DNA of 64,000 bases from Candidatus Woesearchaeota archaeon (GTDB taxonomy: Archaea; Nanobdellota; Nanobdellia; Woesearchaeales; UBA583): positions 552,713 to 616,712 of the forward strand of contig OZ242164.1 of NCBI GenBank assembly GCA_965205335.1, given 5' to 3'. The stretch's first letter is position 1; each line of letters begins with the position of its first letter. The position numbers and the translations under genes are program-made. This document shows, piece after piece, positions 2,407 through 56,922 of this stretch. The notes below the pieces were generated by a model. That model had not been told where the DNA came from, ran no database searches, and was given only the letters and a program-made list of their open reading frames with translations.

Positions 2407-3390
2407 TGTGTTGTCCTAATTCTTTTTCCCACTTTTATTATCTCCAATCATTTTTATAAACCTACCTAATGTCCATGGCATTAATTCACGCCAGAACACT
2501 TGTTCAGGCGTATCAAAATCCAAGCTACCATGCGGTCTATGATTATACCAGTCCATAAATTCATTAAATGTATTGAATTTCTGTCTATGAAGTTCATAGG
2601 TATGATTCCACTTCTCAAACTTACCATTGGTTTGAGGGTGTTTATATCTACATTTTGAATGTATAATTTCTAACCTGGCAAGAACTCTTTGGAACTCAGA
2701 TATGCCTTGCTGCTTACCCTCTTGCTTATTTGCATAAAACTGACTGCCTCTATCAGTCAAACAAACATCAATTGGTTTTATATGCAAATACGTTTTGTAA
2801 GCTTGTTTGATCAACCCAATATTGTGTTTTGCTTCTTCTTTTTTGAACTCACCCCCACAAAGGATTTTCCTTGATTTATCATCTAAGACTGCACACATCC
2901 ACATTTGCAAATGTGAATTATAATGCCAATCCATATGAACCATATCTAAAGACCATGGTTTTTCATAACGAATCCATGGCTTTCTTCTCTTTTGTTTTCT
3001 AGGATTGGCAATTGCTTTATTATTTGCAAGTAACACAATATGAACATAGTTATTTGCAATTTTAAAGTTTTCTTTCTTACGCAGATATTGACAAATGTAA
3101 TTTGCTCCAAACCCTAGTTTTGAATGCAAAGAAAGAATTCTTCTTTCTAAACTTCTAGGATAGACTCTTTTTGGTTTCATGCCATTCTTCTGTAAAACAG
3201 GAAGTAACCCTGTTTTCTTAAATTCTAAGAAAAGTTGATTAACTCTTCTTTTACTAATATTGAACTGCTTAGCAATAAAAACAGATGAAACACCTTTATT
3301 CTTACGCTTAATTATCTTTTCAATGTCCAAAGCATTTAGTTTCATAAAAGACTCAATTTCCAAGGTGGGAAATTTTTTGCGGACAATACA
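2407..3390 (-). mobile_element. IS481-like insertion sequence (rve-type DDE transposase, about 1 kb)
   Basis: Imperfect 10-bp TIRs TGTGTTGTCC (2407-2416) and GGACAATACA (3381-3390). The same 18-mer caaaaattacttacatac occurs exactly 1000 bp apart at 2389-2406 and 3389-3406, in direct orientation flanking the element (the right copy shares its first 2 nt, ca, with the 10-bp TIR); it may be a target duplication. Confidence 0.5.
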
Positions 3391-3411
3391 AAAATTACTT
3401 ACATACCACAT
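2416..3411 (-). CDS. IS481-family transposase (N-terminal HTH plus rve/DDE integrase core)
   Basis: HPQTNGKFEKWNHT is the rve signature, with D...D...E spacing. N-terminal HTH region KLNALDIEKIIKRKNKGVSSVFIAKQFNISKRRVNQLF. The true start may be the internal Met at about 3345, since the first 22 codons lie outside the TIR. Confidence 0.8.
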   Translation of the reverse strand: MWYVSNFCIVRKKFPTLEIESFMKLNALDIEKIIKRKNKGVSSVFIAKQFNISKRRVNQLFLEFKKTGLLPVLQKNGMKPKRVYPRSLERRILSLHSKLGFGANYICQYLRKKENFKIANNYVHIVLLANNKAIANPRKQKRRKPWIRYEKPWSLDMVHMDWHYNSHLQMWMCAVLDDKSRKILCGGEFKKEEAKHNIGLIKQAYKTYLHIKPIDVCLTDRGSQFYANKQEGKQQGISEFQRVLARLEIIHSKCRYKHPQTNGKFEKWNHTYELHRQKFNTFNEFMDWYNHRPHGSLDFDTPEQVFWRELMPWTLGRFIKMIGDNKSGKKN

Positions 3412-3460
3412 TCTTTATAAATACCAATCTATTCTCGCAATAATAAAAGAGTAAAACAAG

Positions 3461-6310
3461 ATGAGTGGAAATTTTTTTGATAAGAGTATTTTAGAATCAT
3501 CATACGAAGAAGAATATGAGAGTATAAAAGATTACGATAAACTAACTTACTATTTGAAAAAAACTGAGAACCTATATAGTTTTCATTGCGAAATAAATGG
3601 ACAAAGACTAAACCAAGGAGAACTAAAAGCTCTCATCAAACTAAACGAAAACAAAAAAATCATGAACGAATCAGATGCAGAATTACTAACATACATAATC
3701 CATAAAATAAGTCCAATTCAGACAATATACAAACTATCCACAGACATAGAAGTAATCATCAAATACTTAGCCAACTGTAAATTTAAATTCTTCCTTAACG
3801 ACAAAGAATCAAAAGTTGTATCAAAAAACAAAAAACTTGACCTAAACCTCTACATTGGCAAAGATTCAAACATAAAACTAGACATACTAAACAAAGGTGG
3901 ATTTTTTTGGGGAAACTACGAAGCCTTCTACGTTGAAGATCAAACAATCATGCCAATCTCAGATGAACTACCCCTTAAACTTTACAAAGAAATAATTGAT
4001 GGGAATAACAAATTCTCAATAGAAACATTCTTCCAGATAAAAAATTCAATAATTCCAAAACTAAAAAAACTGCATAACTTAAAAATCTCGGATGAAATTG
4101 AAAAACTATCAAGCCTTTCAATAGAAGAAAAAATTGCCCCCTACATTTTAGAAATTGGAAAATCCGTTCACTTCATCACCTTTCACCTAAAATACAAAAT
4201 AGGCGATGAACTCTTTAACATTGAAGATTACAAATACCTTGAAACAATTAACTGGATGAACAAACCCAATCTAATCAAAATAACAAAAGAAGACTCCGGA
4301 CTTATCAAATACATCTCTGACGAAAAACTCTCAGAGCACACAATTGATACAATATTTGAAGGAGTTAGAATTAAATACAGCAAAAACCAAAAATCACCCT
4401 TCTCAATAATGGTTCCTATCTCAAGTCTTGAAACAGTTGTCAAAAAAGTTCTGCCAAAAGCTCACAAGACATTTCAAATTGAATACAAAGAAGGACAGAA
4501 ACTAACTCTGTCCAACTCAAATGTAAAATTTGAAATTGACACGAACCTAAAAAAAAACCTTAACTTATTTGAATTTAAAGTTCGCTTTAAAATTGGAGAC
4601 GAATTCTTTGACATTGAATTCTTAAAAGAAATTATGTCCAAAAACAGAAAACACGTTCAACTAAAAGACGGTAGAACTGTAAACATTGAAAACTTTCGTG
4701 ACATTAACAAATGGATTGAATTTTTAAATAAATTTGAATTTAAAAGAACAGAAAAAACTTACAAAGCCCAAAGCAGCAGTGCCCTTGAACTTAACGAATT
4801 TCTAAAAAATATTGAAGGAACAAAAGTTACATCAAACGAAGATTACAAGAATATGATTACAGAAGTAAAAGATAGGACTCCAATTGAGCCCATCAAAATC
4901 CCAAAGCAAGTTTCCAATGTCCTTCGTGACTATCAAATAGATGGAGTTTACTGGATGTATTTTCTAAAAAAATATGGCTTCGGAGGAATCTTAGCTGATG
5001 AAATGGGCCTTGGAAAAACCATTCAGGCTCTAACTGTTTTAAGTATGAACAATAACAATGGGACTCATTTAGTCGTATGTCCTAAATCTCTCATCTACAA
5101 CTGGGAAAATGAAATCAAAAAATTCCTTCCTGATATGAAAGTTTTAATTATTGATAAAGACCAAGAAAAAAGAAAAAAACTAATTAAAACTGCAAACAAC
5201 TATGACATAGTTATAACCTCATACTCTATTCTGCAAAGAGACTACTCTTATTACGACGAAAATAAAATCATATTTAATTATCAAATTTTAGATGAAGCTC
5301 ATTACATTAAAAACATAAAAACTCTCTCATCAAAAGCTGTTAGAGTAATTAATGCTAAAAGAAAAGTATTACTAACAGGAACCCCTCTTGAGAACAACTT
5401 AGATGAATTATTTGGAACATTTGAATTAATTATGCCAGGATATTTAGGAACTAAGACTGAATTCAGAAATAATTTTGTTGCAAAAATCGAAAGAAACAAC
5501 CAGATAGCCCTTGACATCTTGCAGGCAAAAATCAGACCTTTCATTTTGCGTAGAACAAAAAATGAGGTTTTAAAAGAATTACCTGACAAGCAAGAACAAA
5601 TAGTATATAACGAGATGACTAATAAACAGATAGGAGTATACAATGAAATCCTTAATCGTGTTAAAAGCGAAGTTAACATACTAATTGAAAAACAGGGATT
5701 TGAAAAATCAAGAATTCAGGTTTTATCTGCTCTTTTGAAACTAAGACAAGTATGCAACCATCCTTCCCTTGTTGATAAATCCTTTTCAGGTGAAGTTGGT
5801 ATCTCTGGAAAACATGAACAATTTAAAGAACTTCTCTCAGAAGTTATTGCATCAGGTGAGAAAGTCCTCGTATTTAGTCAATTCACATCAATGCTTAACA
5901 TCTTTGAAAAAGACTTAAATGAAAGAGATATTACTTTCTCCCGATTAGATGGTTCTACAAAAAATCGCCAAGAAGTCGTTGATGAATTTAACAATAACAA
6001 ATCAATCTCAGTTTTTTTAATTTCACTTAAAGCAGGAGGAGTTGGACTGAATTTGACCTCTGCAAGTGTTGTATTCTTATATGACCCTTGGTGGAATCCT
6101 ATGGTAGAACAACAAGCAGTTGATCGTGCTCACAGAATAGGACAAAAGAAAAAAGTTAACATCTACAAATTCATTACAAAAAATTCAATTGAAGAGAAAA
6201 TTCTCAAACTGCAAGAAAGAAAAGGAAACCTATTTGAGAACTTAGTTGTAGAAGATTCGGGATTTATGAAAAGACTTGAATGGGAAGATTTAATGGAACT
6301 ATTTGATTAA
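3461..6310 (+). CDS. SNF2/Swi2-family ATPase-helicase with a roughly 470-aa uncharacterised N-terminal domain
   Basis: Helicase motifs GILADEMGLGKT (I), DEAH (II, ILDEAHYIKN), LLTGTPLENNLDEL (III), QAVDRAHRIGQ (VI). Confidence 0.85.
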   Translation: MSGNFFDKSILESSYEEEYESIKDYDKLTYYLKKTENLYSFHCEINGQRLNQGELKALIKLNENKKIMNESDAELLTYIIHKISPIQTIYKLSTDIEVIIKYLANCKFKFFLNDKESKVVSKNKKLDLNLYIGKDSNIKLDILNKGGFFWGNYEAFYVEDQTIMPISDELPLKLYKEIIDGNNKFSIETFFQIKNSIIPKLKKLHNLKISDEIEKLSSLSIEEKIAPYILEIGKSVHFITFHLKYKIGDELFNIEDYKYLETINWMNKPNLIKITKEDSGLIKYISDEKLSEHTIDTIFEGVRIKYSKNQKSPFSIMVPISSLETVVKKVLPKAHKTFQIEYKEGQKLTLSNSNVKFEIDTNLKKNLNLFEFKVRFKIGDEFFDIEFLKEIMSKNRKHVQLKDGRTVNIENFRDINKWIEFLNKFEFKRTEKTYKAQSSSALELNEFLKNIEGTKVTSNEDYKNMITEVKDRTPIEPIKIPKQVSNVLRDYQIDGVYWMYFLKKYGFGGILADEMGLGKTIQALTVLSMNNNNGTHLVVCPKSLIYNWENEIKKFLPDMKVLIIDKDQEKRKKLIKTANNYDIVITSYSILQRDYSYYDENKIIFNYQILDEAHYIKNIKTLSSKAVRVINAKRKVLLTGTPLENNLDELFGTFELIMPGYLGTKTEFRNNFVAKIERNNQIALDILQAKIRPFILRRTKNEVLKELPDKQEQIVYNEMTNKQIGVYNEILNRVKSEVNILIEKQGFEKSRIQVLSALLKLRQVCNHPSLVDKSFSGEVGISGKHEQFKELLSEVIASGEKVLVFSQFTSMLNIFEKDLNERDITFSRLDGSTKNRQEVVDEFNNNKSISVFLISLKAGGVGLNLTSASVVFLYDPWWNPMVEQQAVDRAHRIGQKKKVNIYKFITKNSIEEKILKLQERKGNLFENLVVEDSGFMKRLEWEDLMELFD

Positions 6311-16571: not shown

Positions 16572-19500
16572 ATGGCTCAATATATTTGTAAACTAAAATT
16601 AAACTATATGGAACTAGTCAAAGATGATACAATTAAAAAAATCATACTAGTTTTAGTTCTTCTTTTTGGAGTATCCTTAGTTCTCGGAGCAACAAGCAAT
16701 GGCGAGCCAGATTTTTATGATGATCCCTATGCACCTAACTCTTATGATGATCCCTACTCTTCTGGATCTTATAATGATCCCCATACACCTAACTATGATG
16801 ATCCCTACACTCCTGGATTTTATGATGATCCCTATGCACCTGGCTATTATGATCCCCATACACCTAACCATGATGATCCCTATGCACCTGGCTATTATGA
16901 TCCCCATACACCTAACTATGATGATCCCTACACTCCTGGATTTTATGATGATCCCTATACACCTGGATTTTATGATAATAATTATGATGCTGTGGATGGA
17001 GTTTGCGGTGTAGATGTTGATACATGTAAAAACGGGACCTACAAGAGCCTTCTGGATAATTCAACCCATTATTTATGGAATTGCATAGGATTAAATGGTG
17101 GAAGTGATGCATCTTGCAGTAAACCAAAATCTTCTACTGATGGAGTATGTGATAATTCTGGAAGAAATAGATGTTCAAGTGGAAGTTCTAATGATGGAGC
17201 ACATGCAGATACAACTTGTGAGCATAGATGGCGTTGTGATGGAGTACGTGGAGGAAGTAATTCGGGTATGTGCAGTATAGTCAAACCAAGCCGAATTGTA
17301 AATGGAGTATGTGATAATTCTGGAAGGAATAGATGTTCAAGTGGAGATGATAATGATGAGGCTGTCACAGATACAACCACTCACTATAGATGGCGTTGTG
17401 GTGGAAGTTGTGGTGGAAGTAATTCAGGAACGTGTAGTTATCCTATACCACCATCTTCTATTGATGGTGTTTGTGGTTCAAGTGTTAATAGTTGTATTGA
17501 TGGAACTTTGAGTGATATTGGAGATAATTCAACCCATTATTTATGGAATTGCATAGGATTAAATGGTGGAAGTGATGCATCTTGCAGTAAACCAAAATCT
17601 TCTACTGATGGAGTATGTGATAATTCTGGAAGAAATAGATGTTCAAGTGGAAGTTCTAATGATGGAGCACATGCAGATACAACTTGTGAGCATAGATGGC
17701 GTTGTGATGGAGTACGTGGAGGAAGTAATTCGGGTATGTGCAGTATAGTCAAACCAAGCCGAATTGTAAATGGAGTATGTGATAATTCTGGAAGGAATAG
17801 ATGTTCAAGTGGAGATGATAATGATGAGGCTGTCACAGATACAACCACTCACTATAGATGGCGTTGTGGTGGAAGTTGTGGTGGAAGTAATTCAGGAACG
17901 TGTAGTTATCCTATACCACCATCTTCTATTGATGGTGTTTGTGGTTCAAGTGTTAATAGTTGTATTGATGGAACTTTGAGTGATATTGGAGATAATTCAA
18001 CCCATTATTTATGGAATTGCATAGGGTTAAATGGCGGAAGTAACGCTTCATGTAATGAAAGAATATCATTAAATGAAGATGATAATACCTCAAATAGAAA
18101 TAATTCTAATAATAATTCAGAAAAGATTAAATTAAATATTATTTTTGGCTCATATTATGATAAATTATACCGTCCTTCTCAAGAACATATTCAACTTGAA
18201 TTTTCACAGAGAAATCTCTTTATGAATTGCAATGAGTTTGAAATCGATATTACACTAAATAATGAGTTTAACTACAAATATGATTTTCAAAAAAGAGTGA
18301 TTCCTGTGCATCTTGGTATTGGTCTTTTCGACATAACACTTGATGAACTCAGAAATGAATCAGACACTGTTAAGTATAACGCAGTTCTATCTGGAAAATG
18401 TGAAAACAATCCTAACAAAAGAACAACACTCTTATCGCAAGAAGGAACATTTCAAATACCTCCTTTTGATGTTACCTATGATCGGCTTACTAATAAGATA
18501 AGAATTAAACTCCCTGGATATACCCATTTAGAAAATTATGATATATATATGTTTAATATTACATTACACAATAAATTTAGTCTCACGTCTATATTTGAAC
18601 AACTTTCAAATAGAAAAGAATCATTTATAGAATTTAGTGTTGAACCTTCATTATTAGATAAACTTAGAGAAGAACCAGACTTAGTTAAATACAATGCAAT
18701 TCTTTATGGAGGAAAAACTGTAGGAGGGGATGAAAACCATTTGAATTTCAGCAAAATACTTGGTTCACAAGAAGGACTGTTTCTAATCCAGTTTCTAACC
18801 CTGTATGGTGAACAGTATGGTGAAGAAGGATGTGGGGGATACTGTGATATAGGACCTTTTCTATGGATGGGTGATGGAGATCACTCAAAATATGACTTAT
18901 TTTTTGTATTTGAGGGCAAAACAGTTGAGGAAGTAGAGGACCAATTAGATAGACATTTTAGAAACGGAGATTATTCTTTGTTTAAAACAAACCCTTTTAT
19001 TGAACAAGAAGATAAGTTTAATATTTATTATGCAATAATTTCAGATGCATATGATTATAAACTGAATAAGGAATGTAAATGGGGAACTTATCCCAGACCA
19101 GATTCTCATTTCAACAACATCTTCGCTCAATATGATTGGATAGATGGAGAAGTTCATTTTAGTCAGAACCCATCTGTATGGCCTTATGCTAAGTATGGTA
19201 AGTATATTCAGATGTCTTATGCTTGTTACAGATCTGTTTGGGGTGTCAATTGGGATAAAACTTTTGTCCATGAATTTGGGCATCTGTTCGGCTCTTTGAG
19301 AGATGAATACATTTATCCTTCTTTATCAGATAATAATGCTCGTTCACATGACAGAAAAAATTGTCTTTACATAAGGGAACTAGTGGGTAAAAAATGTGAA
19401 AATGGATGTGAACTAAAAGGAACTCACAGATGGGAACATATTCCAAACTTTGATGGAGAAGTACTCTCTGGATGTAAACATCCTCTTCTTTTTAGGGGTG

Positions 19501-19616
19501 AATTTAATAGTATCATGAGAAACGAATTGCAATTTTATAAAGACACTTGGGCAGGTGGTTGGGGTCCAGTTAATGAGTATTATCTAAGAGAAAAGTTAGA
19601 GGAGAATTATAGTTAA
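16572..19616 (+). CDS. Large surface protein: signal anchor, Tyr/Pro/Asp-rich 9-aa repeats, duplicated Cys-rich modules and a C-terminal M64-like (IgA-peptidase type) zinc metalloprotease domain
   Basis: N-terminal hydrophobic segment; (DDPYxPGxY) x about 12; modules DGVCG...THYLWNCIGLNGGS...C; C-terminal VHEFGHLFGSLRDEY matches the M64 HEFGHxFxxLxDEY signature. Confidence 0.7.
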   Translation: MAQYICKLKLNYMELVKDDTIKKIILVLVLLFGVSLVLGATSNGEPDFYDDPYAPNSYDDPYSSGSYNDPHTPNYDDPYTPGFYDDPYAPGYYDPHTPNHDDPYAPGYYDPHTPNYDDPYTPGFYDDPYTPGFYDNNYDAVDGVCGVDVDTCKNGTYKSLLDNSTHYLWNCIGLNGGSDASCSKPKSSTDGVCDNSGRNRCSSGSSNDGAHADTTCEHRWRCDGVRGGSNSGMCSIVKPSRIVNGVCDNSGRNRCSSGDDNDEAVTDTTTHYRWRCGGSCGGSNSGTCSYPIPPSSIDGVCGSSVNSCIDGTLSDIGDNSTHYLWNCIGLNGGSDASCSKPKSSTDGVCDNSGRNRCSSGSSNDGAHADTTCEHRWRCDGVRGGSNSGMCSIVKPSRIVNGVCDNSGRNRCSSGDDNDEAVTDTTTHYRWRCGGSCGGSNSGTCSYPIPPSSIDGVCGSSVNSCIDGTLSDIGDNSTHYLWNCIGLNGGSNASCNERISLNEDDNTSNRNNSNNNSEKIKLNIIFGSYYDKLYRPSQEHIQLEFSQRNLFMNCNEFEIDITLNNEFNYKYDFQKRVIPVHLGIGLFDITLDELRNESDTVKYNAVLSGKCENNPNKRTTLLSQEGTFQIPPFDVTYDRLTNKIRIKLPGYTHLENYDIYMFNITLHNKFSLTSIFEQLSNRKESFIEFSVEPSLLDKLREEPDLVKYNAILYGGKTVGGDENHLNFSKILGSQEGLFLIQFLTLYGEQYGEEGCGGYCDIGPFLWMGDGDHSKYDLFFVFEGKTVEEVEDQLDRHFRNGDYSLFKTNPFIEQEDKFNIYYAIISDAYDYKLNKECKWGTYPRPDSHFNNIFAQYDWIDGEVHFSQNPSVWPYAKYGKYIQMSYACYRSVWGVNWDKTFVHEFGHLFGSLRDEYIYPSLSDNNARSHDRKNCLYIRELVGKKCENGCELKGTHRWEHIPNFDGEVLSGCKHPLLFRGEFNSIMRNELQFYKDTWAGGWGPVNEYYLREKLEENYS
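16720..16985. repeat. Imperfect 27-nt tandem repeats encoding DDPYxPGxY
   Basis: gatgatccctaYRcMcctggMtWttat units repeated in frame inside the large ORF. Confidence 0.6.
17055..17990. repeat. Two identical 468-bp tandem copies (17055-17522 and 17523-17990) with a diverged third start
   Basis: Sequence beginning ataattcaacccattatttatggaattgcatag recurs at 17055, 17523 and 17991; the ORF-track pairs 17069-17380/17537-17848 etc. are identical. Confidence 0.85.
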
Positions 19617-25721: not shown

Positions 25722-25778
25722 AGTGGTAAGTATTAGTTTCTATGTGAGTGTTAGAATTAGGGACATAATTTTGAATTC

Positions 25779-25906
25779 GGCTCTGTCCGAAAATTCAAGA
25801 GAACTTAAAATATTGTATCAGTAAAGCAATTTTTGACAAATTATTTTTTTCTTTGACTGAATATAGTTAGCATAGATTTTGGAAAAACCAATTTCCGGAC
25901 AGATGG
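25779..25906. mobile_element. MITE copy A (about 128 bp, TIR GGCTCTGTCCGAAAATT family)
   Basis: Left end ggctctgtccgaaaatt, right end ccggacagatgg (degenerate); flanked by GAATTC on both sides. Confidence 0.6.
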
Positions 25907-25914
25907 ACGAATTC

Positions 25915-26046
25915 GTGGCTCTGTCCGGAAAGTCAAGAGAGCATAAAATATTATATAAATAAAACAATTTTTGACAAATAATTTCTTTCTTTGATTGAAC
26001 ATAACTAGCATAGATTTTGAAGAAAACAATTTCAGGACAGAGCCAC
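25915..26046. mobile_element. MITE copy B (about 132 bp), tandem to copy A
   Basis: Left TIR GTGGCTCTGTCCG, right TIR CGGACAGAGCCAC, flanking GAATTC duplication (25909-25914 and 26047-26052). Confidence 0.6.
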
Positions 26047-26093
26047 GAATTCCAAAGTTTTATAAACAACTTGCTGTTAAAACTTCTTATTTA

Positions 26094-27170
26094 ATGGACC
26101 TAAAATTCGGGCTAATTAGTCTGGGGAGTACCTCCTCTAAGATGATTTTGGAAGAAGCAAAAGCTTACTTTGATGTAGTAGATAGTATTGACCTAAAAAA
26201 GATTGAAATCAAAATTAACGATAGTATATCAGTATTATATGATGGAGAATCTCTCCCTGAATATGACTGTCTATACTTTAAGGGGAGTTTTAAATACTCT
26301 ACACTTCTTTTCTCTCTCTCTGAGATCTTTAAGGATAAATGTTATATTCCTATCAGACCAAACGCTCATATAATTGCTCATAACAAATTTATGACTCATC
26401 TTCTCTTATCTTCCGATAAATCCCTTAAAATGCCTTCAACTTACTTTACAGCAAAGATTTCCGAAACTAAAGCTTTCTTAAAAACTCTTAATTATCCTAT
26501 TATTATGAAATTTCCTTCTGGAACTCATGGTAAAGGAGTTATCTTTACAGAAAGTTATTCAAGCGCCAGTTCTATGATTGATGCTTTAGATGTCTTCGAT
26601 CAGCCTGTAATCATTCAGGACTACGTTAATATAAAGTCAGATCTAAGAATTATTGTTGCAGGAGATAAAGTCGTTGGAGCTATGAGGAGGATTGCAAAAG
26701 CCGATGATGTCCGTGCAAATGCTCATGCAGGAGGCAATGCTGAACCCTATTTACCAACTCCTGATGTCAAAAGAATGTCAATTAATGCTGCAAAAAAAAT
26801 TGGAGCTGATATTTGCGGTGTAGATATTATAGAAACTGATTATGGACCTCAGATTCTTGAAGTAAATACTTCACCTGGGCTTCAGAAGATTACAGAGGTT
26901 ACAAAGAAAAACATAGCAAAGGAAATTGTTGAGTTCCTATATGAGAAAACAAAGGAAAGAAAAGAAAGAAAAGACAAAACCATTGCAAAATCAATGGTTG
27001 GAGAATTGGGAATTGATGAGATTGGAATTCGTGAACTTGAAGGAGATATTAGAATAGTTAACGGAAAAATTGTTCTGCCTGAATTTGTATCAAAGATGAG
27101 TGATTTTAGTGATGGGGAAAGCGTTAACTTAAAAGTTTCAAAAGACAGTGTAACAATTGGCAAAAACTAA
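26094..27170 (+). CDS. ATP-grasp ligase of the RimK/LysX/CofF/MptN type (amino-acid or glutamate ligase) with a C-terminal extension
   Basis: FPSGTHGKGV, IIQDYVN, DLRIIVAGDKVVGAMRRIAKADDVRANAHAGGNAEPY, ICGVDIIETDYGPQILEVNTSPGL. Start set at Met 26094, 28 nt downstream of TATA aaagttttataaa. Confidence 0.65.
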   Translation: MDLKFGLISLGSTSSKMILEEAKAYFDVVDSIDLKKIEIKINDSISVLYDGESLPEYDCLYFKGSFKYSTLLFSLSEIFKDKCYIPIRPNAHIIAHNKFMTHLLLSSDKSLKMPSTYFTAKISETKAFLKTLNYPIIMKFPSGTHGKGVIFTESYSSASSMIDALDVFDQPVIIQDYVNIKSDLRIIVAGDKVVGAMRRIAKADDVRANAHAGGNAEPYLPTPDVKRMSINAAKKIGADICGVDIIETDYGPQILEVNTSPGLQKITEVTKKNIAKEIVEFLYEKTKERKERKDKTIAKSMVGELGIDEIGIRELEGDIRIVNGKIVLPEFVSKMSDFSDGESVNLKVSKDSVTIGKN

Positions 27171-36374: not shown

Positions 36375-37223
36375 TCAATTAATACTTTCTATTTCAACAG
36401 GCTTTGTACGATAAGTAACTAAAAACTCTGACTTATCGTACAACAGGTTAGCAGTAATTCCCAAGTTTTCCATTTCCATAATAAGAACGCAAATATTATG
36501 GCATACAATTTTACATAACACTTCGTTTACCTGTGCTGTCCTGTTTTTAGATTTAACATTATCCCCAAACTTCTTTTTCACCATACTAAATGTAGTTTCA
36601 ACATTACTTCGTTTATGATAATGTTCCATAAACTCATCCTGATTATAAAGGAAATAATGTAATGCTTTCTTCCAGATTATACCTCGTTTATGTTTGGATT
36701 TTTCATTTACATTATTTTTGAAAGGAATATAAGGAACTGCTCCTACTTCATTGATTGCTTCTAAGTTTTCCTTACTGATATACGCCTTATCTCCTGAAAA
36801 CTCCTCTATTGTGAAGACTTCATTAGTCTTATCCAGTAACTCTTTTAACTGTGGGCTGTCGTGGTCAAATTCAGACGTTATTTTAACTGCTGGAATGATG
36901 TTAGTATGAACTCCTGAAACTATGTGACATTTAACCCATTTCTTATATCTGTCCTGTGTGGAATGCTTATACTTATTCCAGTTCTGCACTATTGACGTAC
37001 CAAATCCCGAACTGTCTATTGCAAAATTGGTTTCAACTTCTTTCAATGGCTGTGATGTAATCTTAATCAGGTTGTGCAGAATCTCTGAAACCTCTTTTTT
37101 ATTAAAGTAAACTTTAAGTGTTGTAAATGGAACTTCCTTAGTTATGTACTCAAAATCCTTGCTTAACTGCATATCACAGGTAAATCTACGCCCAGAAACC
37201 CCTGAATACACTTTAAATATCAT
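36375..37223 (-). CDS. IS transposase orfB (DDE_Tnp_1 / IS4-IS5-like catalytic domain)
   Basis: DSSG...GDKAY...YHKRSNVETTFSMVKKKFG (Y-x2-R-x3-E-x6-K signature). The ORF reads through the left TIR into flanking DNA for its last 8 codons. Confidence 0.75.
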   Translation of the reverse strand: MIFKVYSGVSGRRFTCDMQLSKDFEYITKEVPFTTLKVYFNKKEVSEILHNLIKITSQPLKEVETNFAIDSSGFGTSIVQNWNKYKHSTQDRYKKWVKCHIVSGVHTNIIPAVKITSEFDHDSPQLKELLDKTNEVFTIEEFSGDKAYISKENLEAINEVGAVPYIPFKNNVNEKSKHKRGIIWKKALHYFLYNQDEFMEHYHKRSNVETTFSMVKKKFGDNVKSKNRTAQVNEVLCKIVCHNICVLIMEMENLGITANLLYDKSEFLVTYRTKPVEIESIN

Positions 37224-38062
37224 TGAGTTAAAATATCGTGTATAGGTGTTTTAGGTCGCCCAAACTTATAACCTTCCTCCTGTGAGTTCTTAACTAAATC
37301 GCTCAACAATTTCATAAACTTGTCCTTCTCTGTTTTCTGTGCCTCATCATAAGCACTCCAATTCTGTGTGTATATCTTCTTAGTTACTTCCTGTTTTAAA
37401 GTTCCGTCGGTATAAATTGTCTGAGTTACAGTATATTCTACTGCAAAGATATGCTTACATTTAGAGTGACGCTTCTTATAGTCCATACAACTGCATTTAG
37501 CACCAAAACCATTACTCTTAACCACATAGCACATTTTAGTATTCGTTTGGCTCGTACTATCTACGTTGTATCATTCTCCTTCTTAATCTTGAAGTCCTTT
37601 GCAATTTCAAGACCTCTTTCTTGTCTTAAGTTTTGTTGTGGTTGTTTGTTTTGTACCATAATAAGTAATAATTATTACTCTTAAAATATTTATTAATACC
37701 TATACCTAATAATCCTGAAAAAATATCCTAAATTATTAAAGAGAATATAAAAATTGCTAAAAAGTCAAGAATAGAGGAATTAAAAGCAATGTCCAAAATT
37801 AATGAAACTCCTATAATTTCAATTTTTGGTTCAATACAAAAAAACTAAGGACAAAAACATTTAAATATCTCTACCTTTTTATTGTATAAGAGATTTCGCT
37901 TAATTTCACTCGTGGTTGTTTGTTTTTAGGCGAAATCTCTCTTATTTTTAAATAATATATATAAATATTAAAGTTTAGTAAATTTTATGACAAACCAAGT
38001 AATTTAAGACTTTTCGTACAGATTCCTTACTTTTCGTACAAAACACACTTTTCGTACAAAGC
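36400..38062 (-). mobile_element. IS element (1663 bp) of the IS4/IS5-type DDE superfamily with a separate SWIM-zinc-finger orfA
   Basis: 17-bp TIRs GGCTTTGTACGATAAGT (36400-36416) and ACTTTTCGTACAAAGCC (38046-38062). 9-bp direct target duplication ATTTCAACA at 36391-36399 and 38063-38071. Three subterminal acttttcgtaca repeats at 38010-38062. Confidence 0.7.
37220..37534 (-). CDS. IS orfA: SWIM zinc-finger DNA-binding protein
   Basis: CSCMDYKKRHSKCKHIF (CxCxnCxH SWIM); stop overlaps the orfB start in ATGA, indicating translational coupling. Confidence 0.6.
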   Translation of the reverse strand: MCYVVKSNGFGAKCSCMDYKKRHSKCKHIFAVEYTVTQTIYTDGTLKQEVTKKIYTQNWSAYDEAQKTEKDKFMKLLSDLVKNSQEEGYKFGRPKTPIHDILTQ

Positions 38063-38108
38063 CATTTCAACAATAATCTTTATAAAAGAATTCCAATTAT
38101 TTTCAAGT

Positions 38109-38300
38109 ATGATAATCCCAATAAGATGTTTTTCATGCGGTAAACCAGTAGGTCATTTATGGGAAGAATTTAAAACCCAAACTGAAAAAGGGAAACCAGT
38201 AAAAGAAGTTCTTGACTCTTTAGAATTAAAAAGATTCTGTTGCAGAACAGTTGTTATGTCCCATGTTGATTCAATAGATATTGTAGGAAAATACAAATAA
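38109..38300 (+). CDS. rpoN: DNA-directed RNA polymerase subunit N (Rpb10 homolog)
   Basis: MIIPIRCFSCGKPVGHLWEEF...LKRFCCRTVVMSHVD is canonical RpoN; TATA tttataaaa lies 18 nt upstream. Confidence 0.8.
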   Translation: MIIPIRCFSCGKPVGHLWEEFKTQTEKGKPVKEVLDSLELKRFCCRTVVMSHVDSIDIVGKYK

Positions 38301-47640: not shown

Positions 47641-47794
47641 TTTAAGATTTCAGTAATACCATAATTTGAAACCCTAAACCCTCTTTCAACAACTCTCTTA
47701 ATCAAGATATGCATATACGAAAAATCAAACCTACTTAATCTCACTGAAACTTCTAAACACAAAATTTATAATATATCATTAATGCTCCATAACT

Positions 47795-52081: not shown

Positions 52082-52210
52082 TGGCTCTGTCCGAAAATTC
52101 AAGAGAACTTAAAATATTGTATTAATAAAACAATTTTTGACAAATAATTTTTTTCTTTGATTGAAGATAGTTAGCATAGATTTTGGAAAAAACAATTTTC
52201 GGACAGAGCC
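52082..52210. mobile_element. MITE copy C (TIR GGCTCTGTCCGAAAATT family)
   Basis: tggctctgtccgaaaattc ... aattttcggacagagcc, flanked by CTATTAG at 52075-52081 and 52211-52217. Confidence 0.65.
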
Positions 52211-52218
52211 CTATTAGT

Positions 52219-52233
52219 AAAAGTTTTATAAAT
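52219..52233 (+). promoter_or_regulatory. BRE/TATA promoter (aaaagttttataaat) for the gene at 52254
   Basis: Consensus archaeal TATA 21 nt upstream of ATG; lies immediately downstream of MITE C. Confidence 0.45.
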
Positions 52234-52253: not shown

Positions 52254-53093
52254 ATGGAAAAAATTATAGACGCTCTTCTAAAAAAAATAAAATCAAAACC
52301 ACAAATTAAGCATTTAGAAGACAAATTTATACTAGAGAGAATTAGAAAGTTTCTCAAAACAAACGGTGATATTAGAGTAAAACTTGAAAAAGAATTTAAG
52401 TTAAAACAAGATAAAATAACTAAATCAAAAGTTTTCAAGGAAATTGTAAAAGCAATCAGATGGGAAATAGGAGTAATCTATGGAAGTTTTCTGACAAAGA
52501 GCTTTCCAAAAAAAAATAAATTAATTGAAAGCAATTACAAAGACTTACTAAAACTTCACAAATCAACAAAAGAGAGAATTGAACTATATGAAAAAATTTA
52601 CAGACAGATACTCAGATGGTATAAACCAAAAAAAATAGGGGACTTAGGATGCGGATTAAATCCTATCTCTTATGAAATAATTGAAAAAATTCTAAAATAC
52701 AAACCAGAATACTTTGCATCAGATTTAAACTCTGAGGACATAGAATTTTTAAATAACTACTTTGAATCAAACGACATTAAGGGAAAAGCCAAAGTATATA
52801 ACATAACAAACCTTGAAATATTAAAAGATGAAGATTTTAAAGAGTGTGATTTAATATTCTTATTTAAGGTTCTTGACAGTTTTGAATTCATTAAAAAAAA
52901 TATCTCAAAGAAATTGCTTGATGAAATAAAATCAAAACATATAGTTGTTTCATTTCCAATGAAATCCCTTATTTCAAAGAAGACTTTTGATTTCAGTAAA
53001 AGAAACTGGTTTAAGAATTACATAAATAAAATGAATTGGGATTACAAAGCATTTGAAGTTGAAAACGAAATATTTTATTTAATTAAAAAATAG
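52254..53093 (+). CDS. Hypothetical protein with a class-I SAM-methyltransferase-like motif
   Basis: IGDLGCGLNP resembles motif I (DxGxGxG); the rest is unassigned. Confidence 0.35.
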   Translation: MEKIIDALLKKIKSKPQIKHLEDKFILERIRKFLKTNGDIRVKLEKEFKLKQDKITKSKVFKEIVKAIRWEIGVIYGSFLTKSFPKKNKLIESNYKDLLKLHKSTKERIELYEKIYRQILRWYKPKKIGDLGCGLNPISYEIIEKILKYKPEYFASDLNSEDIEFLNNYFESNDIKGKAKVYNITNLEILKDEDFKECDLIFLFKVLDSFEFIKKNISKKLLDEIKSKHIVVSFPMKSLISKKTFDFSKRNWFKNYINKMNWDYKAFEVENEIFYLIKK

Positions 53094-53347
53094 ACAATGC
53101 ATAAGCCACGTTCTGTAATTTCTGTAGCACCTAAACATTTAGGCAACGAAATTCGTATAATTCATCTAAGCGAGCATTAAACTCTTGCACCAGTCAGTTT
53201 GTTTCAACTTTGAAGGATTTATAACGCTCAACTAATATCATCGCTAAATCAACCAAAGGGATTTTCTGTATAGGCTGTTTCCATCCTCTGACTATAACTA
53301 AGGGTGCGTGGACTTTCCTCCCAAAAGGGTTTATACTAATTGCCTAT
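53086..53347 (-). ncRNA. rnpB: RNase P RNA (minimal archaeal type), about 250 nt
   Basis: Minus-strand transcript has GGGAGGAAAGUCCACGC (CR-I, P4 5' strand) near the 5' end, CUUAGAUGAAU, and ACAGAACGUGGCUUAUG (CR-V, P4 3' strand; AAGUCCACG pairs with CGUGGCUU) near the 3' end, followed by oligo-U. The region is GC-richer than its surroundings and has no ORF. Confidence 0.65.
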
Positions 53348-53394
53348 TGCAATAAAACATACGAGATTTTATTTATAAAACTATCTCCACTTGG

Positions 53395-53511
53395 GGCTTT
53401 GTACGAAAAGTAACAATTGCTTTAAAAAAGATTAAAACATTATATTATATATTGATAATTTTAATTATTTCTAATTTATTGTTAATTCTTAATGACTTTT
53501 CGTACAAAGCC
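53395..53511. mobile_element. MITE (117 bp) derived from the IS at 36400-38062
   Basis: TIRs GGCTTTGTACGAAAAGT and ACTTTTCGTACAAAGCC, 9-bp target duplication TCCACTTGG (53386-53394 and 53512-53520), AT-rich non-coding core. Confidence 0.6.
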
Positions 53512-53576
53512 TCCACTTGGAAATTCTACAACCCTCACTAAAAAAATTTTATAAAAGGATGTCAATTAAACAATTT

Positions 53577-56258: not shown

Positions 56259-56350
56259 ATTTATCTGAAATAAAACACCAATTATAAAGTTTTAGTTCAA
56301 AAATCAAATACAATATTTATAGAAATACACTTACTAAGAGTTCATATACT

Positions 56351-56400
56351 ATTCATTAAATTGAAGATAGTTAGCATAGATTTTGGAAAAAACAATTTTC
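56351..56400. repeat. Truncated right half of the GGCTCTGTCCG-family MITE (solo end)
   Basis: ttgaagatagttagcatagattttggaaaaaacaattttcggacagagcc is identical to the right 50 bp of copy C; the left half is absent. Confidence 0.55.
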
Positions 56401-56454
56401 GGACAGAGCCTTTTAAATAAAAGTTTTATAAATCAAAGTTTCTTAGTTTTACTT

Positions 56455-56922
56455 ATGACAGATTTAAAAGAAAAAATTATTGAAGTTCTAAGAGATGTAT
56501 ATGACCCAGAAATTCCCGTTAATGTGTACGATTTAGGTTTAATCTATGAAATAAATATAAAAGAGGATTCATCTGTTCACATCCTAATGACTTTAACATC
56601 CCCTACATGTCCAACAGCAGAATATATTCAGACTATGATTGAGGATGCAATTAAAACAATTTCTGATGTCAAGGATGTAGAAATTGAACTAACATTTACG
56701 CCTGCATGGACTCCTGATAGAGTTTCTATGGATGCGAAAGAAGAATTAGGACTTGGAGATGTTCAATCACAGGACAATTTAGCAGTTCAGTCAGTATACG
56801 GAGATGATAGTGTTTGTTCAAAGTGCAATATTTCAAGTGATAAGAAAATTCTTCTAAAAGCAGTTTGTGACAATAAAGAGATTTTGATTTGTAATGATTG
56901 TCTTGTTAAACAAGAGAAGTAA
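56455..56922 (+). CDS. DUF59 (MIP18/SufT-like Fe-S assembly) domain protein with a C-terminal Cys-rich extension
   Basis: IEVLRDVYDPEIPVNVYDLGLIYEI...LTSPTCP is the DUF59 signature. C-terminal CSKCN...CDNKEILICNDC. Start at Met 56455, 21 nt from TATA. Confidence 0.6.
   Translation: MTDLKEKIIEVLRDVYDPEIPVNVYDLGLIYEINIKEDSSVHILMTLTSPTCPTAEYIQTMIEDAIKTISDVKDVEIELTFTPAWTPDRVSMDAKEELGLGDVQSQDNLAVQSVYGDDSVCSKCNISSDKKILLKAVCDNKEILICNDCLVKQEK

Follow-up and report, generated by a model that had tools for sequence, protein, structure and literature searches.

Repeats at predicted core promoters and their empty sites in relatives

The DNA examined here is a stretch of 64,000 nucleotides from a Candidatus Woesearchaeota archaeon (contig OZ242164.1), referred to as the window, in which short mobile repeats lie directly upstream of predicted promoters. 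It carries three full copies (c1, c2 and c3) and one shortened copy (c4) of a 128-nt miniature inverted-repeat transposable element (hereafter MITE) with the ends GGCTCTGTCCGAAAATT, which we call family 2, together with one MITE of another family (family 1) and one complete insertion sequence (IS). The promoters beside them consist of the TFB-recognition element (BRE) followed by the TATA box. An earlier note on this DNA had recognized the repeats as MITEs, essentially in the right places, and had counted five copies or fragments where we find four elements; its boundaries for c1 hold, those of c2 and c3 are refined to 25917-26044 and 52083-52210, and the fragment that it had placed at 56351-56400 lies at 56360-56410. 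Comparison contigs L100, L101 and L116 come from relatives with 88-92% protein identity, and the homologues of the flanking proteins carry the names Nanoarchaeota or Woesearchaeota, which points to an archaeon of DPANN type. The family-2 loci comprise the following features.

25771-25778, left copy of the target duplication on the c1 side, TTGAATTC, the ancestral 8-mer
25779-25906, plus strand, family-2 MITE copy c1, right end degenerate (GGACAGATGG in place of GGACAGAGCC); absent from L116
25907-25916, c1/c2 junction ACGAATTCGT, a perfect palindrome that differs from the expected TTGAATTC
25917-26044, plus strand, family-2 MITE copy c2; absent from L116
26045-26052, 8-mer ACGAATTC between c2 and the BRE, in the position of a target duplication
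26053-26066, plus strand, predicted BRE/TATA at c2, read as ACGAATTC, CAAAGT, TTTATAAA; RimK-like ATP-grasp gene with its ATG at 26094, 27 nt past the TATA box; pre-exists in L116
52075-52082, left target duplication of c3, CTATTAGT
52083-52210, plus strand, family-2 MITE copy c3, perfect 17-nt inverted ends; absent from L100 and L101
52211-52218, right target duplication of c3, CTATTAGT
52219-52232, plus strand, predicted BRE/TATA at c3, read as CTATTAGT, AAAAGT, TTTATAAA; FmrO-like methyltransferase gene with its ATG at 52254, 21 nt past the TATA box
56360-56410, plus strand, family-2 MITE copy c4, right-hand 51 nt only
56411-56418, 8-mer TTTTAAAT between c4 and the BRE, the surviving copy of the duplication
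56419-56432, plus strand, predicted BRE/TATA at c4, read as TTTTAAAT, AAAAGT, TTTATAAA; Fe-S assembly (PF01883) gene with its ATG at 56455; pre-exists in L100

Copies c1 and c2 are arranged head-to-tail in the region 25773-26052, with c2 standing between c1 and the promoter. The element is small, non-coding and multicopy (128 nt, four copies in 64 kb), and it has terminal inverted repeats, which are perfect over 17 nt in c3 and related in c1 and c2. Copy c4 matches the final 51 nt of c3 with 100% identity; pairwise identity is 91% for c1 and c3, 89% for c2 and c3 and 84% for c1 and c2, and the tandem pair consists of two diverged copies, not of a recent duplication. A search of the window with the 17-mer GGCTCTGTCCGAAAATT, allowing up to three mismatches, gave nine matches against 0.13 expected, all of them ends of the four family-2 elements, of the family-1 MITE (53395-53511) or of the IS (36400-38063). 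Two chance open reading frames (ORFs) that overlap c1 and c2 (25818-26069 on the minus strand, and 25995-27170) are both gone in the L116 empty site.

At all three family-2 loci the relatives contain empty sites, giving a clean presence/absence polymorphism. L100 and L101 are without c3 and have a single xxATTAGT that leads directly into AAAAGTTTTATAAATAAG...ATG; the window at this point reads CTATTAGT, c3, CTATTAGT and then a promoter identical to that of the L100 and L101 empty sites. At the c4 locus the fragment is absent from L100 and the promoter is the same, and at the tandem locus L116 has neither c1 nor c2 and reads TTGAATTC, CAAAAG, TTTATAAA. The reciprocal case also occurs, with a 1031-bp IS in L100 (2995-4025; ends GGCTCTGTCCGGAAA; 8-bp duplication ATCTAAAC) where the window is empty, as follows.

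47751-47772, plus strand, unoccupied target site, read as TTCTAAAC, ACAAAA, TTTATAAT; occupied in L100 by the IS

The single 8-mer followed by BRE/TATA in the empty sites means that the elements are mobile and that the promoter predates them. The family-2 repeats are MITEs, non-autonomous and mobile.

Two further differences from the relatives were observed. At the c4 locus (window 56347-56362 compared with L100 13190-13240) the join between flank and element falls at a shared ATTG and ∼19 nt of ancestral flank are gone, which looks like a microhomology-mediated deletion that may have removed the left half of c4 and some flank. In the AI-2E transporter neighborhood of L101 (5020-6832) there are an IS1595-type transposase and a D12-class DNA methyltransferase that are both missing from the window, a difference that is further strain-level mobile-element turnover.

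Insertion sequences with similar ends and the distance to the TATA box

The IS, the family-1 MITE and their neighboring promoters lie elsewhere in the window.

36391-36399 and 38064-38072, 9-bp duplication ATTTCAACA of the IS
36400-38063, minus strand, IS of 1664 bp with the ends GGCTTTGTACGA(T/A)AAGT
37534-37220, minus strand, ORF1 of the IS, 104 aa, weak SWIM zinc-finger match (PF04434, E 4.4e-4)
37223-36375, minus strand, ORF2 of the IS, 282-aa DDE transposase (Pfam DDE_Tnp_1, PF01609, E 1.9e-24)
38073-38086, plus strand, predicted BRE/TATA at the IS, read as ATTTCAACA, ATAATC, TTTATAAA; RNA polymerase subunit N gene (rpoN) at 38109-38300 (PF01194, E 1.1e-25)
53090-53347, minus strand, archaeal RNase P RNA gene (Rfam RF00373, 59.6 bits against a gathering score of 84, E 4.9e-16, full-length model match)
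53372-53385, minus strand, predicted BRE/TATA of the RNase P RNA gene, read as CCAAGTGGA, GATAGT, TTTATAAA; abuts the duplication of the family-1 MITE
53386-53394 and 53512-53520, 9-bp duplication TCCACTTGG of the family-1 MITE
53395-53511, family-1 MITE with the ends GGCTTTGTACGAAAAGT

The insertions obey a simple spacing rule, found at about 30 sites, in which the element is followed by an 8- or 9-bp duplication, then by exactly 6 nt (the BRE) and then by the TATA box. Within the window all five of the promoter-adjacent insertions (c2, c3, c4, the family-1 MITE and the IS) show the duplication, 6 nt and TTTATAAA. The same rule holds for the L100 IS, for an IS in L145 (GGTAAAGC, AATAGT, TTTATAAA), for the P0277 IS at two sites and for the P0314/P0315 IS, with the ends GACATTGTCCGGAGTT, at six distinct sites. 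In the window targets the ATG or RNA start follows 21-27 nt past the TATA box (24 nt for the 5' end of the RNase P RNA), as would be expected for leaderless or short-leader archaeal transcripts.

These data sharpen the suggestion of the earlier note that the element targets promoter-proximal DNA, which is strongly supported down to a single-nucleotide position relative to the TATA box. The GAATTC and CTATTAG(T) flanks that it reported are present; its proposal of a preference for GAATTC does not hold, the sites sharing their distance to the TATA box and the duplicated 8-9 bp sequences differing. Its promoter motif, given as 2-12 nt past the right end, has to be moved outward, because AAAGTTTTATAAA starts 9-10 nt past that end, after the 8-bp duplication and 1 nt. 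Exact copies of this 13-mer number four in the window, three of them adjoining family-2 elements. The four family-2 MITEs all have the same orientation relative to the promoter. The ISs are present in both orientations, and a fixed orientation was therefore dropped as a feature of the rule.

The relation of the MITEs to the IS family of the window, also noticed earlier, is borne out by the match of the terminal inverted repeats to the IS end GGCTTTGTACGAAAAGT at 14 of 17 positions, and a full-length partner IS with a same-size 8-bp duplication is found in the relative L100 (∼90% protein identity). Matching autonomous elements are the L100 IS (2995-4025) and the L145 IS (2943-3967), with the ends GGCTCTGTCC(G/A)(G/T)AAA and 8-bp duplications. 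The L100-type IS, judged by its ends and duplications, appears to be the kind of autonomous partner that family 2 requires, with the MITE ends being assigned to IS ends over the first 17-20 nt. Transposases 80% identical to that of L100 (P0243 and P0361) lie on a 1,199,749-bp contig that has a 100% match to a window protein and that we take to be the source genome.

The L100 IS encodes one 316-aa DDE_Tnp_1 protein, and the transposases of the window, L100, L145, P0277, P0314 and P0300 all belong to this Pfam family. For the window and L100 enzymes the best NCBIfam model is transpos_IS5_2, at 131.6 and 106.5 bits, and the curated IS5 cut-off of 140 is not reached; the transposases are best described as IS5-like and divergent. 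A Mutator-like transposase was also considered, and significant Pfam and NCBIfam matches were obtained only to IS4/IS5-type families. Subgroups of the IS5 family differ in duplication length, which is 9 bp in the IS903 group and 8 bp in the ISH1 group, and both lengths are seen here. The P0314 transposase is 48% identical to that of L100. Between the window IS and L100 the identity of the transposases is 26%, yet the ends are similar (GGCTNTGTNCG) and the target rule is the same, so that targeting belongs to an old and wide clade as a whole, not to a single element.

The window IS differs in organization from the single-ORF ISs of the sister lineage, in which ORF1 has no counterpart; its product could be a DNA- or target-binding accessory protein. 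ORF2 overruns the left end of the IS by 25 nt before its stop, and the C terminus of the transposase is therefore set by the insertion site. The ∼530 nt from ORF1 to the right end (37535-38063) are non-coding, and within the last 65 nt ACTTTTCGTACA occurs in three direct copies, which may be additional binding sites for the transposase.

In place of a genome-wide catalogue of copies we used a cross-genome scan that was blind to the flanks, in which one genome per GTDB species was searched for any 110-140-nt element ending GGCTCTGTCC...GGACAGAGCC, with perfect 10-nt ends demanded; this gave at least 99 loci. Among the matches listed there are 18 archaeal loci (Nanoarchaeota, Woesearchaeota, Pacearchaeota and two Methanosarcinales metagenome-assembled genomes (MAGs)), with a locus GC content of 28-52%. 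A BLAST comparison of the MITE with all 99 listed loci found no member of the same family, and the interiors of the archaeal elements are unrelated to that of the MITE in the window; most of the 18 listed have perfect or near-perfect 9-bp duplications. With a TATA-like 8-mer defined as one with at most two mismatches to TTTATAAA, such an 8-mer stands at offset 15 on one flank in 15 of the 18 archaeal MITEs among the matches listed, compared with four or fewer at any other offset. For a randomly chosen position in these loci the background averages ∼2.6% per element, giving a binomial P of ∼2e-17 for these listed matches. The other three of the listed 18 fit offset 14, with an 8-bp spacer, the duplication being unconfirmed for L025 and L056. 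An ORF starting with ATG follows 20-37 nt past the TATA box in most of the archaeal matches listed, and the opposite flank has no such pattern. Together with the genes that follow the window targets, this supports taking the BRE/TATA sites for genuine promoters.

The same 10-nt ends in bacteria gave a different picture, with a TATA-like 8-mer at offset 15 in 0 of the 80 bacterial elements among the matches listed, which are different elements, either flanked by 2-bp TA/TAG or other sequences or bounded by inverted repeats of greater length. Negative results also came from a metagenome scan with the family-specific right-end pattern, which gave no match, from a metagenome scan with the family-1 end pattern, which served as a negative control and gave 14 unrelated or chance matches with no TATA signal, and from scans of viral contigs, which gave nothing, or a single chance match inside a gene.

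A target logo from 29 sites reads R-A-A-A-R-N followed by TTTATAAA, with A at the fourth BRE position in 28 of the 29, and we take this to be the general archaeal BRE/TATA pattern. Inside the duplication there is a weak preference for C at the last position (17/29). A weight matrix built from the non-window sites alone gives 13 matches in the 64-kb window, four of them with a MITE at the predicted position, suggesting that high-scoring sites are often occupied. The fixed offset is conserved across element lineages and across hosts.

Side observations also came from the scan. Many bacterial MAGs (e.g. CALMOL01, Verrucomicrobia, and CAYNVI01, Pirellulaceae) carry multicopy 110-140-nt MITEs with GGCTCTGTCC near their ends; the Planctomycetes MITEs with GGCTCTGTCC have TA/TAG flanks, and in one Verrucomicrobia MAG the inverted repeat reaches further out (GCCTCTACAAC...). 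These cases hint that GGCTCTGTCC may be a very widespread IS5-like end motif, with other target rules in bacteria. Locus L055, binned as Bacteriovoracaceae (nzgw165), and L068, binned as an archaeon (nzgw41), have the same MITE and flanks, and L055 is probably a mis-binned archaeal contig.

Probable targeted integration and alternative explanations

We regard it as very probable that the elements integrate in a targeted manner, with IS4/IS5-type transposition directed to the upstream edge of archaeal core promoters. In the mechanism that we propose, the MITEs would be mobilized in trans by an IS4/IS5-type DDE transposase from ∼1.0-kb ISs with the same ends (GGCTCTGTCCGRAAA), and the 1664-bp IS with the family-1 MITE would represent a second, distant sister lineage with the same target behavior. 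The transpososome itself would pick the promoter, making the gene-proximal target cut at the BRE's upstream border, exactly 6 bp before the TATA box, and the second cut 8 or 9 bp further upstream, according to the lineage. The expected product would then read element, 8-9 bp duplication, 6-nt BRE, TATA box, ∼21-27 nt and the ATG or RNA start. The spacing stays constant at 6 nt despite duplications of 8 versus 9 bp, which places the anchor on the TATA side. Because the core promoter is present before the insertion and left intact, an insertion would be nearly neutral in a compact genome, making the site a "safe haven", and because one promoter can be hit twice, tandems such as c1/c2 can arise.

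The same arrangement could in principle come about by random or AT-biased insertion followed by purifying selection, the survivors being those that sit just upstream of core promoters. Spacers between genes measure about 100-270 bp in these compact genomes, and insertions in genes or in BRE/TATA would be purged, in keeping with all of the observed copies being intergenic. Selection cannot, however, yield single-nucleotide precision when every spacer has neutral positions further upstream, and it is difficult to reconcile with one offset in 15 of 18 independent elements (among the matches listed) and in all of the window and IS cases, or with a TATA spacing of 6 nt for duplications of either length (8 or 9 bp). 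We consider survivorship improbable. An even smaller probability attaches to the idea that the promoter is brought along or created by the element, which would be a mobile promoter or a MITE of the Correia kind moving together with the aaagttttataaa motif, a possibility that the earlier note had left standing beside targeting. Three of the four exact AAAGTTTTATAAA copies in the window do adjoin an element, and the similarity between the c3 and c4 loci runs past the element end (repeat family D5). The same BRE/TATA is nevertheless already there in the relatives' empty sites without the element, a variable 8-9 bp target duplication separates the element end from the BRE, and the sequence past the TATA box is locus-specific.

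It is likewise very unlikely that the repeats are not transposons at all but represent a conserved RNA structure, or a hairpin that lies upstream of promoters as a regulatory or terminator module. Copy c3 has a long terminal stem (z about -5.6 on either strand) and the interior contains a T-rich run; this stem, though, is simply the pairing of the inverted ends, with equal strength on the two strands, folding is much weaker in c1 and c2 (z -1.8 to -4.3), and an Rfam search of the elements matched no family. The polymorphism with target duplications, and ends held in common with transposase-encoding ISs, define a MITE, which might still have a secondary exapted role, e.g. in insulation or termination.

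Several points weigh against targeted integration as we describe it. The promoters are predictions made from sequence, and so are the start sites. The data give the geometry of insertion, at the upstream edge of the BRE, and the mode of recognition is a proposal. In the metagenomic IS contigs of L128 and of the P0300 set the left and right flanks form no duplication, and within the P0300 set the spacing is off by 1 nt at one site, and another lacks a clear TATA box; the mismatched flanks are probably assembly chimeras or recombinants. The P0300 IS loci were left out of the counts on account of ambiguous left ends and assemblies of chimeric appearance, two of their sites fitting within 1 nt and one not. 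The within-genome evidence is the 64-kb window, and copies elsewhere might behave differently; the scan, by requiring perfect 10-nt ends, sampled young copies. The tandem locus, which runs TTGAATTC, c1...GGACAGATGG, ACGAATTC, GT, c2, ACGAATTC, CAAAGT, also departs from expectation, since two successive 8-bp duplications of TTGAATTC predict neither the change of TT to AC in two 8-mer copies, nor the extra GT that creates the palindrome ACGAATTCGT, nor the degenerate end of c1.

If integration is targeted, recognition may come about in either of two ways, through read-out of the BRE/TATA, be it the sequence or its deformability, or through docking on the bent promoter bound by TATA-binding protein (TBP) and by transcription factor B (TFB), and of these we lean somewhat towards the first. 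The three family-2 targets share the 13-mer AAAGTTTTATAAA, present four times in the window, which points to a strong sequence preference or to a preference for the strongest promoters. On the other side, the logo is a plain promoter logo across very different host GC contents and very divergent transposases, which suggests TBP/TFB docking. We therefore advance only tentatively, as the less probable course, that the transposase docks on the sharply bent promoter bound by TBP and TFB and integrates at the upstream edge of the TFB footprint.

Relation to known elements, significance and neighboring features

The closest precedent is bacterial. The conjugative transposons TnGBS and the insertion sequences ISLre2 and ISKra4 have Mutator-like DDE transposases and integrate upstream of sigma-A promoters, at 15-17 bp from the -35 box; insertion of the TnGBS/ISLre2 type keeps the promoter intact, which has been read as limiting the fitness cost, and those elements whose inverted repeats are symmetric integrate in either orientation (PMC3942029). 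The archaeal ISH6 may also favor promoters, a speculation made because it duplicates an AT-rich target (PMC3942029). The elements described here resemble this group as DDE elements whose insertions keep a fixed distance on the upstream side of a promoter, in both orientations for the ISs. They differ in their transposase, which is DDE_Tnp_1 (IS4/IS5-type) and not Mutator-like (p-MULT), and in their target, an archaeal BRE/TATA at 6 bp from the TATA box as opposed to a bacterial sigma-A -35/-10 promoter at 15-17 bp. They work like the TnGBS/ISLre2/ISKra4 group without belonging to it.

Among eukaryotic elements, the integration of Ty3 in yeast and of the TRE elements of Dictyostelium is directed by TFIIIB (TBP and Brf1), and TBP and Brf1/TFIIB have their archaeal homologues in TBP and TFB. 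The likeness to Ty3 lies in a nucleotide-precise site beside an initiation complex of the TBP/TFIIB family and in the use of a safe haven in a compact genome. Ty3 is a long terminal repeat retroelement for which contact between integrase and protein has been demonstrated at RNA polymerase III start sites, whereas here a DNA transposon inserts upstream of the BRE and the likeness is one of geometry.

IS5-family ISs with MITEs are known from archaea, e.g. Sulfolobus ISC1058 with the SM3 MITEs. The elements of this study share with them an IS of ∼1-1.7 kb with a single DDE_Tnp_1 transposase, ends starting with GGC, duplications of 8-9 bp and MITEs of ∼120-130 nt. They differ in that promoter-directed target choice is unreported for the archaeal IS5-family ISs in the searchable literature, and in an NCBIfam IS5 score below the cut-off. 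The Correia elements of Neisseria are MITEs found mostly just upstream of genes, and they can affect expression (PMC10969869). They have promoters of their own and insert at TA, whereas the elements described here carry none, the BRE/TATA being a pre-existing one that lies outside, beyond the duplication, and is present in the empty sites. Surveys of archaeal MITEs and ISs make no mention of promoter or target specificity, and according to one of them MITEs reach a high density in Woesearchaeota (PMC11602168, PMC13343696, PMC10969869). We found no report of BRE/TATA-directed insertion in archaea in the literature searched, whose coverage was incomplete, so that a prior description is possible.

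ISs and MITEs are usually seen as weakly site-selective, and here a whole archaeal clade appears to place itself with single-base precision. This may explain how dense mobile DNA persists in DPANN genomes of ∼1 Mb at little cost to the host, and it would allow real promoters of uncultured archaea to be marked from sequence alone. The elements would be an archaeal counterpart both to bacterial TnGBS/ISLre2 and to eukaryotic Ty3, in which the way a transposase finds a promoter could be tested in the simple TBP/TFB system, and experimental access is offered by the Methanosarcinales-assigned MAGs that carry such elements, Methanosarcina species being genetically tractable. Insertion parts upstream regulator sites from the core promoter, and the elements could therefore rewire regulation. 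Should TBP/TFB docking prove true, it would be the first transcription-factor-directed transposition in archaea and a DNA-transposon counterpart there of Ty3/TFIIIB, acting across transposases 26% identical and across DPANN and Methanosarcinales hosts; the elements would then report promoter occupancy naturally and to the nucleotide, and would be a tool for placing DNA beside promoters.

The RNase P RNA gene next to the family-1 MITE is missed by a standard gathering-threshold scan, and its low score suggests a divergent or reduced RNA of DPANN type. A second strong BRE/TATA (AAAAAT TTTATAAA), which would serve an ABC-transporter gene, lies at 53542-53555 on the plus strand, 31 nt from the right end of the family-1 MITE, and this places the MITE between two divergent promoters, abutting only that of the RNase P RNA gene. 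Apart from the mobile elements, the window contains a 1014-aa ORF (16572-19616, plus strand) whose 24/27-nt tandem repeats encode units resembling YDDPY(A/T)P(N/G) and which also has 468-nt repeats that are 100% identical; its product is probably a surface or secreted repeat protein.

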